Source: a virus
Direction: 5' to 3' (one strand)
IMG/VR virus record: IMGVR_UViG_3300025872_000001
DNA: 64,000 nucleotides
Positions 934 through 39,635 of this stretch are shown piece by piece. The translations under genes were made by a program, and so were the position numbers. The notes beneath the pieces are model-generated. The model saw only the letters and a list, made by a program, of their open reading frames with translations. It did not search any database and was not told the DNA's origin. Position 1 is the first letter of the stretch, and the number at the start of each line of letters is the position of its first letter.

Positions 934-1398
934 ATGCGCCTTAACTTTTATAAACCTAATAGATCAAATACTGGAACTGCATTATCATTTAATGTATCAT
1001 ATAAAGACAAAGATCAAACAAAGGGAGAAGGCCCAGATCTTTATGTCAGTTTTGTAAAACAAGCTGGATGGAATGACGAAACAAAGAAGGGTTCTTTTTC
1101 TGAAAATGCAAAGAATCCAGAAAAGACCGCTGCCTTAAAACTCAATCAGGTTGAGGCGGCATCAATGATTCGGGCCGTTAGACAATCAGCCAAATTTTCT
1201 ACTGTTCATGCTTACCAAGGCTCCACGACTTCAATTATGTTTGGACCTTATGTAAAAAAGAGTGGAGATAACGCCTTTTCATTTTCTATTAAAAAGGGAG
1301 AGCAATCTTTTCTAATTGGATTTGAACTTGGTGAGGCTGAACTTGTCGCTCAATATCTAGAGAACTATCTTCGTAAAAGCTTTGAAGTTTCCGAATGA
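934..1398 (+). CDS. Whirly/PC4-like single-stranded DNA-binding protein (putative)
   Basis: Two beta4-alpha repeats ending LKLNQVEAASMI and IGFELGEAELVAQYL; N-terminal FYK...ALSF; start placed at ATG 934. Confidence 0.45.
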   Translation: MRLNFYKPNRSNTGTALSFNVSYKDKDQTKGEGPDLYVSFVKQAGWNDETKKGSFSENAKNPEKTAALKLNQVEAASMIRAVRQSAKFSTVHAYQGSTTSIMFGPYVKKSGDNAFSFSIKKGEQSFLIGFELGEAELVAQYLENYLRKSFEVSE

Positions 1399-3296
1399 AA
1401 AAAACTGTAGTATTCCACAGTAATCACAGCCGAATTTTTACAGGTTTCGGCAAGAACATGAAAAATGTTCTTAGATATCTTTATAAGACTGGTAAATACA
1501 ATCTTATTGAATTTGCTAATACAAAATCAAAAGATGCGCCAGAATTAAAAACATTACCTTGGAAAGCTGTAGGAACGCTACCAGATTCAAATAAACTTCA
1601 AGAAATTGCGTCAGATCAATCTAAATTAAGGATAGCTACATATGGACTTAACGAAATAGATTCTCTGATCAAAGAATTCAAGCCAGACTTTTATATTGGA
1701 ATAGAAGATATTTGGGCCTTGTCGCCATTAGTTGAAAAGAAATGGTGGAATGATAATTGTATGATTTGGACAACTCTTGATTCAGTACCACTTTATACAG
1801 ATGCAGTAAAGATTATTCCAAAGGTTAAAAATTATTATGCTTGGGCTTCTTTCGCTGGTAAAGAAGCAGAGCGCCTTGGATATCCTAAAGGCTCCATTAA
1901 AACATTAAGAGGAGCCACAGAAACTTCCTCGTTTTATAGATTAAGCGATGAAGATCGCCTTTCTCTTAGAAAAGAATTTGGTCTTTCTGATGAATTTATT
2001 ATTGGGTTTGTTTTCAGAAACCAATTGAGAAAAAGCGTTCCTAATCTTTTACAGGGATTCAAATTATTTAAAGAAAAGAATCCTAAATCAAAAGCTAAAC
2101 TTTTATTGCACACTCACTGGGCCGAAGGCTGGGATATCCAGAAACTTATCAAAGATAATGAATTAAAAAATGAAGATATTTTAACCACATATTTTTGTAA
2201 AAAGTGCAAACAGTTTGAAGTTAAACCCTTTGAGGGTCAAAAGATTAGCTGCAAATTTTGTGGCGGCAAAGATACTGTAGAAACAACAAATATCACAAAT
2301 GGAGTAAGCGAGGCCCAACTTAATGAAGTTTACAATCTAATGGATGTATATTGCCATCCATTTACAAGTGGTGGGCAAGAAATTCCCGTTACAGAAGCTA
2401 AACTAACCGAATTGATTACTCTTGTTACTAATTATTCGTGTGGAGAAGACTTTTGCACAGAAGAAAGCGGAGGTATGCCTTTGAGTTGGAAACCTTATTA
2501 CGAACCTGGCACTAACTTTATAAAAGCTACCACCTTACCCGAATCTATTTGTGAAAAGATTGAACGAGTCTATAAGATGTCTTTTTCAAAAAGAAAAGAA
2601 ATGGGCAAAGTAGCCAGACAATTTGTGCTGGATAATCTTTCCGCTGAAGTTATCGGAAAGAAGTTAGAAGAAATAATTGATAATGCTCCACAAGTAGAAT
2701 GGAATTATAACTCTGATTTTGTACAACGTAATCCAAATTATAATCCTCCCGATATAGAATCAGACTCAGATTGGCTGATCAATATCTATAAAAATATTTT
2801 GCAAATGAATGTTGATGCTAATGACGATGGAGTAAAAAGCTGGATAAGTCAAATTAAAAGCGGCAGAACTAGAGATCAAGTTTTAGAATACTTTAGAAAA
2901 GTAGCGGCAAAAGAAAATAATGAAAATGCTAAAACAGAGTTCTCTGATTTACTTGACAAAGACGACAAGGGCAGAAGAATATTGTTTGTGATGCCTCAGA
3001 GCGCGGGAGATGTTTTTATGTCAACTTCTCTTTTACCATCTATTAAAAATCTGTATCCAGACTACAATATTTATTTTGCCACTAAACAAGAGTATTTAGA
3101 TATACTTGACTGCAATCCATTTATTCACAAAAAACTTATTTTTAATTCTTTTATGGAAAATCTTTTGACAATGGAAGGACATGCAAATGGAGATGGTTAT
3201 TTTGATATTGCCTTTTTGCCGTATATAGGTACGCAAAAAGTTTTTGATTATCAACATAACGGCAAAGACAAATTACAATTTAATACCAAGAACTAA
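1395..3296 (+). CDS. Multidomain glycosyltransferase (GT4-like, Zn ribbon, DUF4214-like, GT9 N-terminal-like)
   Basis: TGFGK; GFVFRNQLRKSVP; LNEVYNLMDVYCHPFTSGGQEIPVTEA; CKKC..CKFC insert; C-terminal QSAGDVFMSTSLLPSIKNLYP. Confidence 0.8.
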   Translation: MKKTVVFHSNHSRIFTGFGKNMKNVLRYLYKTGKYNLIEFANTKSKDAPELKTLPWKAVGTLPDSNKLQEIASDQSKLRIATYGLNEIDSLIKEFKPDFYIGIEDIWALSPLVEKKWWNDNCMIWTTLDSVPLYTDAVKIIPKVKNYYAWASFAGKEAERLGYPKGSIKTLRGATETSSFYRLSDEDRLSLRKEFGLSDEFIIGFVFRNQLRKSVPNLLQGFKLFKEKNPKSKAKLLLHTHWAEGWDIQKLIKDNELKNEDILTTYFCKKCKQFEVKPFEGQKISCKFCGGKDTVETTNITNGVSEAQLNEVYNLMDVYCHPFTSGGQEIPVTEAKLTELITLVTNYSCGEDFCTEESGGMPLSWKPYYEPGTNFIKATTLPESICEKIERVYKMSFSKRKEMGKVARQFVLDNLSAEVIGKKLEEIIDNAPQVEWNYNSDFVQRNPNYNPPDIESDSDWLINIYKNILQMNVDANDDGVKSWISQIKSGRTRDQVLEYFRKVAAKENNENAKTEFSDLLDKDDKGRRILFVMPQSAGDVFMSTSLLPSIKNLYPDYNIYFATKQEYLDILDCNPFIHKKLIFNSFMENLLTMEGHANGDGYFDIAFLPYIGTQKVFDYQHNGKDKLQFNTKN

Positions 3297-9119: not shown

Positions 9120-12100
9120 TTACTCAAGCGACAGTATAGAACCTCTAGAGTCGAGCCATTCCGTTTGATCGCGGAATATCTCGGCTCTTTCATTTGGTCT
9201 GATAATAGAGATCTCATTTCCTTCTGCATCCAATATATGTAGATTATGAGATGATCCTCTGTTCACGATTACAACGGAGTTGCCCTCTGCAACATCTGCT
9301 GGCATAACAATAGAGGAGTCTGTTCTTGGGGTAATTAAATTAATAGAATTCAATTTATCTTCTGGAAGCTCATATTCAGACTCTATTCTTTTTGCTTTTC
9401 CGCCACTACCTATTATTGTTGTGCCGTTGTATGTAAATTTTACTCCAATTGTTGCTGATTCTGCACCAATAGCAGTCCAATTGACGCTTGAGCCTAAAGC
9501 ATCTATTTGATAGTTAGCCCCATTTACAAGAGAATTAGTATGAATATTAAATGAATCTTGATCTTCATTTCTGCCCCCATCTACTTCAAATCGATTTGCT
9601 ACTGGATTAATTCTTTCAACAGGTTCAATTTCAAGATAACCACTTACGACATTTGAAATATCACCGGGACCAAAATCATCCCAAGGTCTAAATCTAAAAT
9701 AGTGCCATTTACCAGTTTCTAGACCTTCTGCTAATCTAATTGTATTTACATAACTTCTTGTTTTGTCGAGATTGACATAATTAAATTGATTGGTATGATC
9801 TACAATATCAGCTTCAAACACTCTTTTTACTTGTGCATCGCTACCGTTTATTGCTGTTCCATTGTATTCGAATTCTGTTCCAATAATAGGTGTTTGAGAT
9901 GGGCATCCAATAGCTTTCCAATTTACGCTGGAGCCGACATTCATAATTTCATACCAATTTCCATTAGCCATACCAGTATGATCAATAATTTCTGGAAAAC
10001 CTTGTCCAGTATATACATCAACGCTATAAACATCTTTATTTGATGTAGTATTATAACAGTTAAATATAATTTGGCCTTTTGAAACATCCTCTGGCAAAAC
10101 TGTAAATGAAATACCAGAAAATCCTGTTGTATTCGCAGCAGTTATAGTTTCGAGGTTGGCAATTCCAAGTGGATTTCCTTTAGTAGAGGGAACTTTTCTG
10201 CCCTCTCCACTACCATAAGCAGTAAAATGTTCTAGTCCCCAATCCTCAATCGATGTAGCCTTATCTACATTATCATTATAGTATTTGATTAAATCTTCAT
10301 AAGCATAAACATAGGCTTCATAATCAGCTTCTCCAGTTCCTTTATAATTAATTCCTACTCCAGCGCGCTCTGCCGTAGAAGTTATTCCAGTTCCATTATA
10401 ACCAGTTGCTGTTAAAAATGCTCCAGAAATATCCCTAAATGTTAATGGAACAGAATCATCTTCACTTCTAATTAATTCTCCATTTAAATCTCTAACTCCA
10501 GATCCAGATATTGTTCCTGTAGTAGTATTGTTTTCTGGATTCCATAATGCTATTCCAGTAAATGTGCTGTGGCCATAGTAGCCAGAAAGCACATAATACG
10601 GAGAGTTTTGATAAGAATCAATTACTTGAATCTTGTTATAATATGGATATTGATTATGGGCATAAAATGTACCTGTTTTAGTTAGGTTAGTATTATCTTG
10701 TACTATTACTCTTAAACCAAGTGATCTTGAGTATTCTACATTCTTTGCAGATTCAGTTTCTCTACTGAATAACTCTCCATTCATTTTTTGAGTTACTGTA
10801 TAAGATAAACCTTGATAATTTTCCTCTTGTTTTAATATTTGTCCAGCATTATCCAATATTTGAACTGTAACTTTTTGAGGAAGATCAACGAATGGATTTT
10901 CTAAAATTTGTTCCTTGGTTGACATAACCCCACCAGTAGGATCTATATATTTCCATCTGAAGGTAACATCCGCAGATGTAAAGTTGCCAACTCCCGCTCC
11001 AGCATAAAGTCCTCCTCCTAAATGAGCGATTTGATAATTAACTGAATTTTTATCAGCAGTATCAATTGTAAAGCCACTTGGTATTGTTGAAGTTATAGTA
11101 TAACCTCCTTGACCAGTTAAGGTCGCACTCGGCAATATGATTGCCCCAGTTTGGGCAGCGTCAATTGATAATAATTTATATAAAACCCCTTGAGAATAAA
11201 CATCAAAATCATACTGACCATAAGCTCCGCTTATTGGAACAGTTAATGTAGTTATGCCAGAAGCTACTGTATAAGCATCAGTTATAGAATCATATTCATC
11301 TCCAAGAGTTGAATAATCTGGTCTACTGACATAAACCTTGTAGCCTACAATTGGGCTACTTGTGCCTGACCAAATAATATGGACTCCAGTTCCTCCATAT
11401 CCGCTTACACTAACTATTCCAGATGGAGGATTTGGCTTGACGACTACATCGTATGGCCCTTGAACATAATAGCTAGGCGAAGTATCCATCATATCTTTTT
11501 CGATGAATTCTTCTTTGTCGCGCAAATATTCTATTCCTACAACAGAATATTGATTAGCCTCTTCTTCTTTTGTCGCAATAGTTTTATAAAGTTTCGGTTC
11601 TATTCCAGAGCCACTCAAAACATAAAGAGAACCTTCTGATATTAAATCAAGATTTTTAGGAGTTGTATCTACAGTTAGATTATAAAATCCTTTTTCATAT
11701 CCAGTTCCGTATATCAAACCGCTATAACCAATTCCATTTTCTTGAGCAAGTAATCTTAAATCACTTTGGCCCAAAGTCCCACCTCCAACATAAACATTTA
11801 AACCAAGAGCATTAAAAGCATTAGATACATGGGTAGATGTTAATGCTGAATTTGTATATATTTTTTCAGATCCGTAAAATCCTTTTGGCATTCCAACTGT
11901 ATAATATCCTAAAGAATTACCTTTTGACCATTTTGACTGAGCGGCATTACCATCAATAAAATCACTAGTAAATGCTAAAGCTGATTTTGTATGAGCTTTT
12001 GTGCAAATATAAGTTTCTGAATTATACTTGATAATATTACCAACTGCATACTCTCTGCCAGATTGCCATTCTTCGTAATTTGATTCGGCGCGATTACCAA

Positions 12101-16399: not shown

Positions 16400-19041
16400 T
16401 AGGCGGTCTGAACTTTTTGAGAAAGAACTGGGTTGCCAATTCCTTTAAATGTAGTTGATGTAGATAGGAATTGAACGTTTATTTTCACGGGAGCAGAATA
16501 CAATGTTTGTTTATTATTTATATTAACTTTACATCTGTATCTAGCCTTATAAGAAGAATATCCACTTGATTTTGCTCCGCTCAATTCTGGGCGCTCCGCA
16601 ATAAATCTCACAATTCTATTAGAATCGGAAGATTTTTCTTCAGAGTATGTTATAAAATCTTCGACGACCTTTCCTGTGCCAGTTGCTGATGTTGAGTTTT
16701 TGACAAAAACGCTTTGGATATTATTTATCGGAGAGCCAATTGAAGTCCAATTGGTTGAATCTAATGAATGTATTTTATATTCTTCACCAGCAATCATTGA
16801 CGACACATCTAATACTCTTTTACCTATATCTGAAAACTTTTGATTTTTGGGGGTACTTGGATCAGGAAACCCGTGAAATAATTTTTCTTTTGGAACAGAT
16901 TGCCAATCAGAAAAAACACCATCTCTATTTGTGTCGTATCTATAATATATGCTGATTCCTTCGCTACCTCTTAAATCTTGAACTCTAGCTAATAAACGGT
17001 GATAACCGGCTGTCAAATACAATGTCGTCGTTGAAGAATTTAAAGCCGCAATTTCTGCATTAGATGGTTTTTGAACCCAAGGAGGATTCGCAAAACCAGA
17101 AAACATTCCATGCCCACTATAATATGCGCTTGCCAAAGTTGAATCTATATATAAATCTGAAGCATCATCTGAATCAAGTTTAAATTCATATGCTCCCACC
17201 AACATTACTCTGCCATTGCCTGTTCCTTGGGTTGAATTTTTATAAAATGTAGACCCAACTCTAGGAACTATAGCCGCACCATTTAAACCAGTGAATCCTA
17301 ATCCGCTCCATTGACCAGTATCTCCAATTTTTATAATTTCATATAGGCCAGTAGCAGTTCCAATTTCATATACATCTTTCACAAATGATTTACCGTCGCC
17401 ACCAACTGTTGGAACATAGAAGTACCCAATTAACTCCATACCATAATTGTCAACATTAGAATTAGAACCATTTAATGACTGCTCATTTAATGCGCTAACT
17501 TCACCAATATACGGCCCAGATTGATTTTTATAAGCTGGATAATCATTAAATAATGTATCCATCTCCGCAGTTGTTGTTGGACTCTCTACTCTAGTCCAAT
17601 ATGCGGATTCAGCAACAGGCGCACCACCAGCTAATTCTCCAGTTGTGGGCAAATGACCGGAAACTGGTGCGGTGCATTTATATAAATACTCTAAATTTGG
17701 AGGTAGAATTTTTCTCCAATATGCTGAATTAATTGTTAAACCATCTCCAGTTGGCGATTCTCCCGAAAATCCTGCTGCAACGATAGCTTGAAAGTATGTA
17801 TTTGTGTCTGATCCTGTTGGATAATTTACCAATTCTCCACTAAAATAATTATACCCACTATCCCAAACTCCAAATTTTAAATTATAAAATTGCGTAGGCC
17901 CGAACTTAACCAAATCTCCAACAGAATATTTTTGGAAATAACCAGTTTCATTGCTTTTTAAGTTCGCAAAATCTGATTGTACTTTAAAATCTGGAGTATG
18001 GTATGATCTCATAATCAAACCAGATTTTACTGCATATGGATTTTCTATAAAAACTTTCTTTCTTGAACTGTCATTGCTTAACTCCTCCCATTCATAAGTA
18101 ACATCTTCGTCAAAAGTAGTTAAATCTGGATTTGAAATAATCTCATTATTTCTTTTAACGACTACTTCTACTGGATTAGAAATAACTTTCGACGCACTAT
18201 TTGTTACTATATCTATATAAGAATTTAAAACATTGACGGAACAAAAAGTTACCGTATCTTCCATATCAACAGCTTGATTCGTAGAGAATTTATCTACTAC
18301 TGATCCAGCCGATTCAGCTTCATTTTCTGCAATCAATTCAATATAATCATTAGTTGGCTTATCAACAGGAGTCATCAATTGCTTAATATCAGTATTTAAA
18401 GCGTAATGGTCGATACTAGAACTAATTTGAGAGTGACCGATCTTTAATCGGCCATAGCCAACTGGGATCGCCTGTCCTTGGGCCGTATTAGATGGTTTAT
18501 TACCAAATAAATAAGACTTACCACCAGCTTGAACTTCTTGATTGAAATCTGGTTTAGGTGGTGGGAATAATAATCCCATTACTCCTTGTAAAGCTATACC
18601 TACGCCAAGGCTAAATAAAGCCGTACCTAATGCAGAAAATGAACCTGCGCCAGCAGCGCCCATTACTGTAGTCGATCCAATTCCTCCAAGTACGCTACTA
18701 AATCCAGCGCCCAAAAATCCTGCTGCTCCAGCAGTAGCGATGGTCAACGCTAATCCAACTGCAATTAAAGCTCCATTTTTTCCTGCACCCCAAACAATTG
18801 GTACAATATGAATTTCTTTTGGAGCTTTTTGAACTTCAATTTCTTTAGGATGCTGAATAACATTATCATCGACAACTATTCTATAATGAACTCCTTGTAT
18901 TGCTAGTCTCTTTATTTCATCTAGAAACCCCCTTCTGTTTGAATTGATCGCAAGAAAAGCTTCTTTAGGAGAATTTATATTAAATCTAAATTCCTCACCA
19001 AATTTATTTCGCAATTCGCCGTATAAATATACATTAGTCAT
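16399..19041 (-). CDS. Tail assembly protein I-like with C-terminal PA14 extension
   Basis: VYLYGELRNKFG, IHIVPIVWGAG, SYLFG..SNTAQGQAIPVGYGRLKIG; PA14 YEFKLDSDDASDLYID. Confidence 0.85.
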   Translation of the reverse strand: MTNVYLYGELRNKFGEEFRFNINSPKEAFLAINSNRRGFLDEIKRLAIQGVHYRIVVDDNVIQHPKEIEVQKAPKEIHIVPIVWGAGKNGALIAVGLALTIATAGAAGFLGAGFSSVLGGIGSTTVMGAAGAGSFSALGTALFSLGVGIALQGVMGLLFPPPKPDFNQEVQAGGKSYLFGNKPSNTAQGQAIPVGYGRLKIGHSQISSSIDHYALNTDIKQLMTPVDKPTNDYIELIAENEAESAGSVVDKFSTNQAVDMEDTVTFCSVNVLNSYIDIVTNSASKVISNPVEVVVKRNNEIISNPDLTTFDEDVTYEWEELSNDSSRKKVFIENPYAVKSGLIMRSYHTPDFKVQSDFANLKSNETGYFQKYSVGDLVKFGPTQFYNLKFGVWDSGYNYFSGELVNYPTGSDTNTYFQAIVAAGFSGESPTGDGLTINSAYWRKILPPNLEYLYKCTAPVSGHLPTTGELAGGAPVAESAYWTRVESPTTTAEMDTLFNDYPAYKNQSGPYIGEVSALNEQSLNGSNSNVDNYGMELIGYFYVPTVGGDGKSFVKDVYEIGTATGLYEIIKIGDTGQWSGLGFTGLNGAAIVPRVGSTFYKNSTQGTGNGRVMLVGAYEFKLDSDDASDLYIDSTLASAYYSGHGMFSGFANPPWVQKPSNAEIAALNSSTTTLYLTAGYHRLLARVQDLRGSEGISIYYRYDTNRDGVFSDWQSVPKEKLFHGFPDPSTPKNQKFSDIGKRVLDVSSMIAGEEYKIHSLDSTNWTSIGSPINNIQSVFVKNSTSATGTGKVVEDFITYSEEKSSDSNRIVRFIAERPELSGAKSSGYSSYKARYRCKVNINNKQTLYSAPVKINVQFLSTSTTFKGIGNPVLSQKVQTA

Positions 19042-38053: not shown

Positions 38054-38128
38054 GCAGCAGTAGCTCAACGGTAGAGCGCCATCCTTCCAAGCTGGATGTT
38101 GTGGGTTCGAATCCCATCTGCTGCTCCA
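38054..38128 (+). tRNA. tRNA-Gly(UCC)
   Basis: Cloverleaf; CCATC-CTTCCAA-GCTGG with a 30-40 mismatch; CCA. Confidence 0.93.
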
Positions 38129-38133
38129 ATTTC

Positions 38134-38210
38134 GCGGGGATAGCTCAACTGGATAGAGCAGCAGTTTTCTAAACTGCTGGTTCCGAGTTCGATTCTCGGT
38201 CCTCGCGCCA
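38134..38210 (+). tRNA. tRNA-Arg(UCU)
   Basis: GCAGT-TTTCTAA-ACTGC; CCA. Confidence 0.93.
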
Positions 38211-38215
38211 ATTTA

Positions 38216-38291
38216 GGGGTGGTAGCTCAACGGTCAGAGCAGAGGACTCATAATCCTTTGGTTGTGGGTTCGAATCCCACCCGCCCCACCA
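38216..38291 (+). tRNA. tRNA with CAU anticodon (probably Ile2/lysidine type; Met possible)
   Basis: GAGGA-CTCATAA-TCCTT; paired 1-72, so not an initiator; CCA. Confidence 0.9.
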
Positions 38292-38308
38292 ATTTTTGTT
38301 CTTTCAAT

Positions 38309-38471
38309 TTCCTGAAGCTCGACTCGGACTCATAGATAGGTTGAAGATAGCAGCGTAGTTTCTGCTACTAATTTCGTGTTCTTGTTCTCACAACTCATAA
38401 CGCTTATACTACACGTTATGACGTTTTCCTGAGAATAATTGAGATTGGCCTCGTAAAGCTATGGGCAGGAA
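38309..38471 (+). ncRNA. Structured RNA, copy A of a tandem pair
   Basis: Nested stems TTCCTG/CAGGAA, CTCATAG/CTATGGG, TAGCAG/CTGCTA, CTAATTTC/GAGATTGG, TCATAACG/CGTTATGA; covaries with copy B. Confidence 0.8.
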
Positions 38472-38494
38472 TTCATTTTTTGTTCTTTTTTATT

Positions 38495-38662
38495 TTCCCG
38501 AAGCACGACTCGGACTCGTAGATAGGTTGAAGATGCTGACCGTAACACGTTAGCACTAATCTCAGTGTCATTACGCTCCAGCTTCCTTGTTAGGTGTTAC
38601 GAGCAAGGAAAAATGCTCTGTGTGATGAATGGAGATTAGCCTCGTAAAGCTATGAGCGGGAA
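38495..38662 (+). ncRNA. Structured RNA, copy B of a tandem pair
   Basis: TTCCCG/CGGGAA, CTCGTAG/CTATGAG, TGCTGAC/GTTAGCA, CTAATCTC/GAGATTAG, TTCCTTGTT/AGCAAGGAA; complementary loops CGTAACAC and GTGTTACG. Confidence 0.8.
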
Positions 38663-38669
38663 TTCATTT

Positions 38670-38744
38670 GGTTCTATAGCTCAATGGTAGAGCAGCGTCC
38701 TTTTAAGTCGTTGGTTCTGGGTTCGAATCCCAGTGGAACCACCA
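38670..38744 (+). tRNA. tRNA-Lys(UUU)
   Basis: GCGTC-CTTTTAA-GTCGT with a U30-U40 mismatch; CCA. Confidence 0.93.
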
Positions 38745-38750
38745 ATTTTA

Positions 38751-38922
38751 CTACACACGAACAAGGCTTAGGCCCGAAAGCTCCGAAATGATAACTCGGG
38801 AGGCAACGATGTCGCAAAAACGATATCGGCAAACAGGGATGGGTAGCGAGTGGTGATGCAGTAAAGAACTAACCGAATCACTGGCTCCAATATGCGTTTG
38901 GGCATTGAAATGCCAGTGGAAA
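38751..38922 (+). ncRNA. Candidate multi-stem structured RNA
   Basis: GC-richer intergenic stretch after tRNA-Lys with stems TCCGA/TCGGG, CGATGTCG/CGATATCG, AGTGGT/ATCACT, GGCAT/ATGCC. Confidence 0.5.
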
Positions 38923-38931
38923 TATTTTTTT

Positions 38932-39160: not shown

Positions 39161-39237
39161 TGTCTCGTAGCTCAATTGGTCAGAGCAAGCTCTTTATAAG
39201 GGCTAGGTTCTGGGTTCAAGCCCCAGCGGGACTACCA
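39161..39237 (+). tRNA. tRNA-Ile(UAU)
   Basis: AGCTC-TTTATAA-GGGCT; U1-U72 mismatch; CCA. Confidence 0.88.
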
Positions 39238-39278: not shown

Positions 39279-39635
39279 ATGAAGCAATGCCGCCGATGCG
39301 GGAGCAGGAAAGAAATCGAACAATTCCCATTTTTCTCTGGTCAGCAAACTGGTAGAAAAAATACTTGCAGTGAATGTACGAAAGAATTGTCTCGGTTAAG
39401 AGCGAAACTCAAAAGCGAAAATCCTCCTCCTGCTGCTGGCAATTGTCCGATTTGCGATAACCATACCGAAACTTGGATCTTAGATCACTGTCATTTTACG
39501 AATCAATTTCGCGGATACATCTGTAATAATTGCAATCTTGCCCTTGGAAGATTCAACGATGACGAAAAAATGTTGAGGAAAGCTATTGACTATCTCAATA
39601 GAGGCACTATACTAGCAGTAGATTACACGATTTAA
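39279..39635 (+). CDS. Endonuclease VII-family (His-Me) nuclease
   Basis: CPIC...LDHCHFTNQFRGYICNNCNLALG; N-terminal CxxC..CxxC. Confidence 0.85.
   Translation: MKQCRRCGSRKEIEQFPFFSGQQTGRKNTCSECTKELSRLRAKLKSENPPPAAGNCPICDNHTETWILDHCHFTNQFRGYICNNCNLALGRFNDDEKMLRKAIDYLNRGTILAVDYTI

Follow-up and report, generated by a model that had tools for sequence, protein, structure and literature searches.

Tandem copies of an uncatalogued structured RNA in the tRNA array of an uncultivated freshwater phage

Two non-tRNA units within a phage tRNA array

The DNA analysed here (hereafter the window) is a single stretch of 64,000 nucleotides from an uncultivated phage, and all of the DNA runs that contain it are freshwater metagenomes. 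The phage carries RIIA/RIIB, ribonucleotide reductase (RNR) and tail genes. Among cultured phages it is closest to Methylophilales phage Melnitz and Pelagibacter phage HTVC008M, with about 41-44% protein identity. These genes and relatives point to a T4-related phage. A tRNA array lies on the plus strand at 38054-38744, in the order tRNA-Gly, tRNA-Arg, tRNA-Met, copy A, copy B and tRNA-Lys. The two copies sit on the same strand as the tRNAs, between tRNA-Met(CAU) at 38216-38291 and tRNA-Lys(UUU) at 38670-38744. Copy A runs from the 5′ to the 3′ strand of its closing helix, P1, at 38309-38471, and copy B occupies 38495-38662, ending 7 nt before tRNA-Lys. A U-rich spacer, AUUUUUGUUCUUU, which is a candidate RNase E-type processing site, precedes copy A (38292-38304, exact match) and recurs 5′ of copy B with one mismatch (38476-38488). 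The same spacer is found 5′ of many array units in loci L039, L013 and L124 of other phages.

The copies are not coding, since no open reading frame of at least 40 amino acids overlaps 38212-38673 on either strand. They are not called by ARAGORN or by the Rfam tRNA model, and the 3′ tail, UUCAUUU, lacks CCA. No promoter-like or terminator-like site was found on the plus strand within 38054-38744. Overall identity between the copies is 59% and is clustered in the unpaired strands AAGCWCGANNCGGA, AUAGGUUGAAGA and CCUCGUAAAG. A core pattern of 27 nt has two occurrences in the 64-kb window and none in 100 shuffles. In the contigs of four metatranscriptomes, tRNAs (mostly those of other organisms) and the upstream open reading frame were covered. 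The RNA itself was represented in run X17 only, by one 41-nt piece (38522-38562) and a few low-depth traces.

Searches of the neighbouring genes with Pfam and PHROGs found no RNA-binding or RNA-repair gene, and none of these genes points to a partner, ligand or activity for the RNA. They identified only an endonuclease VII/HNH-type gene (39279-39635, plus strand; PF02945, E = 5e-16), located between tRNA-Ile(UAU) and tRNA-Leu(UAA). A similar Cys-rich open reading frame is present in L124 at about 17405-17755; the two probably encode homing endonucleases and thereby drive the exchange of cassettes. The tRNA-Ile (39161-39237, plus strand) carries the uncommon anticodon UAU and is also found in L013, L039, L042 and the RIIA relatives of the window phage. 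Between tRNA-Lys and the next open reading frame lies a non-coding stretch of ~185 nt (38745-38930, plus strand). In L013, the sequence after tRNA-Lys matches the final ~65 nt of this stretch (about 38866-38930) at 100% identity and differs from its first 120 nt. The shared part forms a long hairpin (CACUGGC...GCCAGUG), and the stretch may be another array RNA, a processing element or a terminator element.

A shared fold maintained by compensatory change

Single-sequence folding gives both copies one architecture. P1 (6 bp) closes the molecule and is followed by P2 (7 bp). The 3′ strands of these two helices are continuous, and their 5′ strands are separated by J1/2, a near-invariant bulge of 14 nt (38315-38328 in copy A, 38501-38514 in copy B). 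P2 leads into a three-way junction with two joining strands, J2/3 (12 nt; 38336-38347 and 38522-38533) and J4/2 (10 nt; 38449-38458 and 38640-38649). From this junction emerge a hairpin of 5-7 bp, P3, and, abutting it without a linker, a P4-P5-P6 arm of roughly 25 bp with two variable internal loops. The minimum free energy (MFE) fold of copy A yields P1, P3, P4, P5 and P6, and the fold of copy B is more stable than its shuffles (z = -3.5). The loop of P3 is complementary to the distal loop of P6 in each copy. In copy A, GUAGU (38355-38359) can pair with ACUAC (38408-38412), and in copy B, CGUAACAC (38541-38548) is an 8-bp Watson-Crick complement of GUGUUACG (38594-38601). All of the helices, shared unpaired segments and loop complementarities described in the original prediction were found at the positions given when the sequence was checked and folded.

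Homologues in other phages, described below, keep this fold through compensatory changes, as a covariance model and homologue search revealed. The covariation rests on a small family of about 11 sequences in five structural versions. In the model-fitted alignment, 97.3% of the 475 cells in 44 pairs are standard pairs, a figure favoured by fitting to the structure. Both sides change in 28 of the 44 pairs, a count that none of 500 shuffles reached, again on an alignment fitted to the structure. When the partners were slid by 1-3 columns as a control, pairing fell to 36-46%. Further, RNAalifold run on an unfitted MAFFT alignment independently recovered P1, P2, P3, P4 and P6 and found compensated changes in 23 pairs. 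Computed sequence by sequence, MFE folds of the arm follow the same plan in every case despite unrelated arm sequences between versions. Among 437 cells, 33 are G.U pairs, which would be A.C mismatches on the opposite strand, and the plus strand is therefore the folded strand. Compensatory changes in six helices, together with the loop-loop pairing and the strand-specific G.U pairs, indicate selection on a folded RNA. The proposal of a folded non-coding RNA class within the tRNA operon is thereby supported.

Conservation is distributed very unevenly over this fold. Across all versions, 33 of the 36 positions in the junction strands are invariant, compared with 10 of 62 in P3-P6 and two of 18 in the loops. 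Over ten sequences, the invariant positions comprise 11 of 14 in J1/2, 12 of 12 in J2/3 and 10 of 10 in J4/2. The contrast between invariant junction strands and variable arms and loops points to the junction as the functional surface. The arms and the loop-loop contact look like a scaffold. For the variable internal loops, a role as guides or decoys had been suggested; the loops change freely and the junction strands are conserved, and the suggestion finds no support. We also considered the AAA/AAG in J4/2 as a codon-like site for the tRNA-Lys anticodon, and dropped this idea because three A's are not significant.

Homologues and distribution

About nine further distinct homologues were found. 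All are on contigs of uncultivated freshwater phages, inside tRNA arrays and on the tRNA strand. Motif scans identified three IMG/VR contigs and ten metagenome contigs with the full motif set, which were reduced by removal of duplicates to 11 sequences (one of them partial) in five structural versions. The covariance model R1, for which ten sequences were used, recovers exactly the full-motif sequences and nothing else, and scores copies A and B at 169 and 144 bits. Version A comprises copy A and L001, which is 98% identical to it. Version B comprises copy B, the 94% identical L042 and the partial, near-identical copy in L013; version B′ is represented by L039, which is 72% identical to copy B. 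Version C includes L002, L016, L023 and L035, and version D L003. A tRNA or a unit that ends in CCA often lies within 0-7 nt of the RNA, and tRNA-Lys(UUU) adjoins it in five loci (the window, L016, L023, L035 and L042).

Other motif matches were discarded. The 50 matches in bacterial genomes were all chance matches in coding regions without the 5′ motif, and about 45 of the 55 metagenome matches were likewise chance occurrences in coding DNA. Seven unrelated loci from the motif scan (L004-L010) were rejected by model R1, the best of them scoring 11 bits.

Among cultured phages, neither blastn of the pair nor megablast of its 16-kb surroundings produced a match in 50,697 phage records, and a search of T4, Melnitz-3 and HTVC008M with model R1 was likewise negative. 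Two phage contigs, G001 (128 kb) and G002 (138 kb), contain one copy each, and both records are incomplete. Compared with the window phage, they have no detectable RIIA, while the RNR of G001 is only 24-27% identical and none was found in G002. The RNA core is identical even between phages that share no detectable RIIA. Conversely, model R1 found no copy in 18 loci from RIIA-related phages. Phages with 87%-identical RIIA possess a syntenic Gly-Arg-Met...Lys-Leu array without the RNA; in them, the slot of the copies holds tRNA-Ile(UAU) and a different folded unit of ~165 nt. The presence of the RNA in distant phages and its absence from close RIIA relatives show a cassette-like distribution, that of an accessory, exchangeable element whose core is under strong constraint. 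The family is rare, being known from about ten contigs.

Other small units in these arrays

The arrays contain further units that are not tRNAs. A second, unrelated folded unit of ~170 nt occupies the slot before tRNA-Lys at L124:17014-17184 and at L013:1157-1342 (minus strand), and is thus present both without the RNA studied here (L124) and alongside it (L013). Its 5′ hairpin is followed by GAAACC and by a long, branched closing stem (z = -3.4 and -3.1), and the unit in L013 has no match in Rfam. In L039, at least seven short non-tRNA units lie at 1200-2130 (minus strand), many ending in CCA plus AUUU, with the same U-rich spacer between them; two of these units have promoter-like TTGAC boxes. 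One segment of this region, L039:1322-1418, is homologous to L002:3165-3255, with 78% column identity. These freshwater phage tRNA arrays carry an entire repertoire of small RNAs that have not been catalogued.

After tRNA-Lys in L124 (17265-17375, plus strand) is a unit of ~110 nt that has T-arm-like segments, GGUUCGAUUCC and GGUUCAAUUCC, ends in CCACC and is not called by ARAGORN; it may be a tRNA-like RNA. In the G002 array, tRNA-sized units that end in CCA flank the RNA (L003:9780-9860 and 10290-10370, minus strand), also without an ARAGORN call. In a related tRNA array, at L016:3667-3859 (minus strand), a group I intron model matches below threshold (45.4 bits against a gathering threshold of 50, E = 1e-8).

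Comparison with known RNAs

The family had not been recognised in the original prediction, and Rfam 15 contains no match to it. At the gathering threshold nothing matched 38292-38669, and at E<=10 the window copies produced only a chance match to a snoRNA, at 20 bits. Across the homologue loci, Rfam found nothing above threshold except tRNAs.

The closest parallel in setting is provided by the species 1 and 2 RNAs of T4 (rnaC and rnaD), whose function is unexplained (PMC3014915). Like the pair in the window, rnaC and rnaD are tandem small non-tRNA RNAs within a tRNA cluster, on the tRNA strand. The likeness does not extend to sequence or structure: model R1, run over the T4 tRNA region with filters off, detected nothing, and rnaC scored 0 bits. 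Further, rnaC has a tRNA-like fold with a T arm, whereas the window RNA lacks both a T arm and a 3′ CCA and forms a three-way junction with kissing loops. A short match to rnaC (UCGGA...GGUUGAGAU) was rejected, as it falls within a helix in rnaC and the model gives 0 bits.

A released, trans-acting RNA as the favoured model

We propose that copies A and B are two paralogous genes of an uncatalogued family of ~165-nt non-coding RNAs that is carried as an accessory cassette, and that the RNAs are released from the array transcript, are stable and act in trans through their junction. We give this reading a probability of roughly 0.6. According to the model, the RNAs would be co-transcribed with the tRNAs of the array and freed by host enzymes, through RNase E-type cleavage of the U-rich spacers, with an RNase P cut at the 5′ end of tRNA-Lys setting the 3′ end of copy B. 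The layout of the array gives reasonable grounds for inferring release through tRNA processing, given that there is no internal promoter or terminator, that the U-rich spacer is conserved and that tRNA-Lys follows copy B so closely. The processed RNAs would then accumulate as stable species, as do the T4 species 1 and 2 RNAs. The geometry of the junction would be held by the variable arms together with the loop-loop contact, and its ~36 conserved unpaired nucleotides would present a surface that binds a partner for action in trans. We favour a protein as this partner and regard a small ligand as less likely.

The loop-loop contact and possible self-assembly

The complementarity between the P3 and P6 loops is present in every sequence, with shuffle probabilities of 0.0002-0.035 for individual sequences. 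Four loop versions exist: GUAGU/ACUAC, UGUAGC/GCUACA, (C)GUAACAC/GUGUUAC(G) and GUUUC/GAAAC. Loops from the same RNA form duplexes of 5-8 bp, compared with mostly 2-4 bp between versions (5 bp in one cross-combination). In register, one G-C and one U-A pair are fixed, and the next three pairs vary on both sides. The predicted covariation of this pairing consequently holds across the homologues as well as within the window. The copy in L042 is a mosaic in which A-type P1/P2 is joined to B-type P3-P6, which shows that the two loops travel jointly, as one module.

We consider it somewhat more probable that the two loops touch within one molecule than that they join different molecules. Contact between molecules is kept as a candidate because of ROOL and GOLLD, structured RNAs of phages and prophages whose function is unexplained and which often lie near tRNA islands. 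Their covarying kissing loops were at first taken as tertiary contacts and were then shown to be intermolecular (PMC12286853). If the same were true here, the RNA would self-assemble into a closed dimer or ring, much as phi29 pRNA does in a small format and ROOL and GOLLD do in a large one, and the orthogonal loops of copies A and B would let each copy associate only with itself. Such assembly is possible but unlikely in our judgement. It would suit the self-cognate covariation of the loops, the lack of complementarity between those of A and B (3-4 bp), the exchange of P3-P6 as a single unit in L042 and the precedent of ROOL and GOLLD, where covarying kissing loops near tRNA islands form quaternary bridges (PMC12286853). 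Helix lengths are also of interest, since the sum of P3, kiss and P6 tracks poorly with that of P4 and P5 in B-type RNAs and allows no clean intramolecular closure there. However, the lengths fit in versions A, C and D, and a U-turn in an internal loop could bring both loops together in one molecule. Moreover, most genomes have a single copy and so have no need of orthogonality, and intermolecular and intramolecular pairing leave the same trace in sequence data.

ROOL and GOLLD resemble the window RNA in their phage tRNA-island setting and covarying kissing loops. They differ from it in size and complexity, being multi-domain RNAs of several hundred nucleotides (many GOLLD RNAs exceed 800 nt) that form 8- or 14-mer cages, whereas the window RNA has 165 nt and a single junction. 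The Rfam models of ROOL and GOLLD do not match it.

The pRNA of phi29 is of similar size and likewise combines a three-way junction with a closing helix; its two loops drift in primary sequence but stay complementary through covariation. To our knowledge, this pRNA belongs to the phi29-type packaging motor and is absent from tRNA arrays. The window RNA, by comparison, is not matched by the Rfam pRNA model and sits in a tRNA array, and its loops may pair within one molecule.

Ligand binding, catalysis and selfish repeats as improbable alternatives

In contrast to the protein partner that we favour, the RNA might bind a small molecule. It would then be an aptamer without an expression platform, made in bulk to sequester a compound such as a host immune signalling nucleotide, and its tandem copies would increase capacity. 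The architecture suits this idea, with a three-way junction, near-invariant joining strands, variable arms and a peripheral loop-loop contact as in riboswitch aptamers, followed by a tRNA and not by a regulated open reading frame. Purine-class riboswitch aptamers, in particular, share the conserved junction nucleotides, variable arms and peripheral kissing contact. The window RNA is, however, more than twice their size, has no expression platform, lies next to a tRNA and matches none of their models. A riboswitch arrangement is likewise absent from the locus, where copy A leads into copy B and copy B, 7 nt further on, into tRNA-Lys, with no terminator or open reading frame. No riboswitch model in Rfam 15 matches even at E<=10, and the aptamer proposal is tied to no metabolic or defence gene and draws solely on architecture. 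We regard it as improbable.

We likewise consider it improbable that the RNA cleaves itself as a ribozyme or serves as a dedicated processing element, helping to cut the polycistronic tRNA precursor. The conserved junction does resemble a catalytic core, and in several loci P1 begins 0-2 nt past the CCA of the upstream tRNA-like unit. Theta/HDV-like small ribozymes adjoin phage tRNAs, which also speaks for this idea. On the other hand, the RNA matches no hammerhead, HDV-like, twister, pistol, hatchet or other ribozyme model at E<=10, and its 165 nt are large for that job. The tRNAs in the same arrays are linked by identical short AUUU linkers without such an element, and close relatives that lack the RNA process the same tRNAs.

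A DNA-level or selfish repeat without RNA function would fit the patchy presence and absence, the mosaic copy in L042 and the homing-endonuclease-type gene inside the array, but we set it aside as having almost no chance of being correct, given the compensatory changes in six helices and the loop pairing and the strand-specific G.U pairs. A released RNA that acts in trans through its junction is the reading that we favour.

Implications for phage tRNA arrays

Small non-tRNA RNAs have been known in phage tRNA clusters since the discovery of T4 species 1 and 2, and they are still unexplained. ROOL and GOLLD demonstrate that such phage RNAs can build unexpected RNA-only assemblies. What is new here is an uncatalogued, well-supported family of structured phage RNAs, whose length of 165 nt suits direct biochemical and structural work. 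With about ten contigs known and no clue to function, the family will have limited immediate impact.

There is a modest chance that the tRNA operon yields a compact RNA-only machine, in the form either of a small self-assembling ring or dimer with orthogonal loop codes that separate A from B assemblies or of a high-copy aptamer sponge with an invariant junction pocket for a small molecule. An aptamer sponge, if real, would give the protein sponges used by phages a first counterpart made of RNA. The family also offers natural material for experiments, as its four loop versions are ready loop-swap controls and as near-identical phages provide pairs that have or lack the RNA. Together with the small size and sharply defined core of the RNA, these controls and presence/absence pairs make the family a tractable route to the roles of the RNAs that phages keep in their tRNA arrays.
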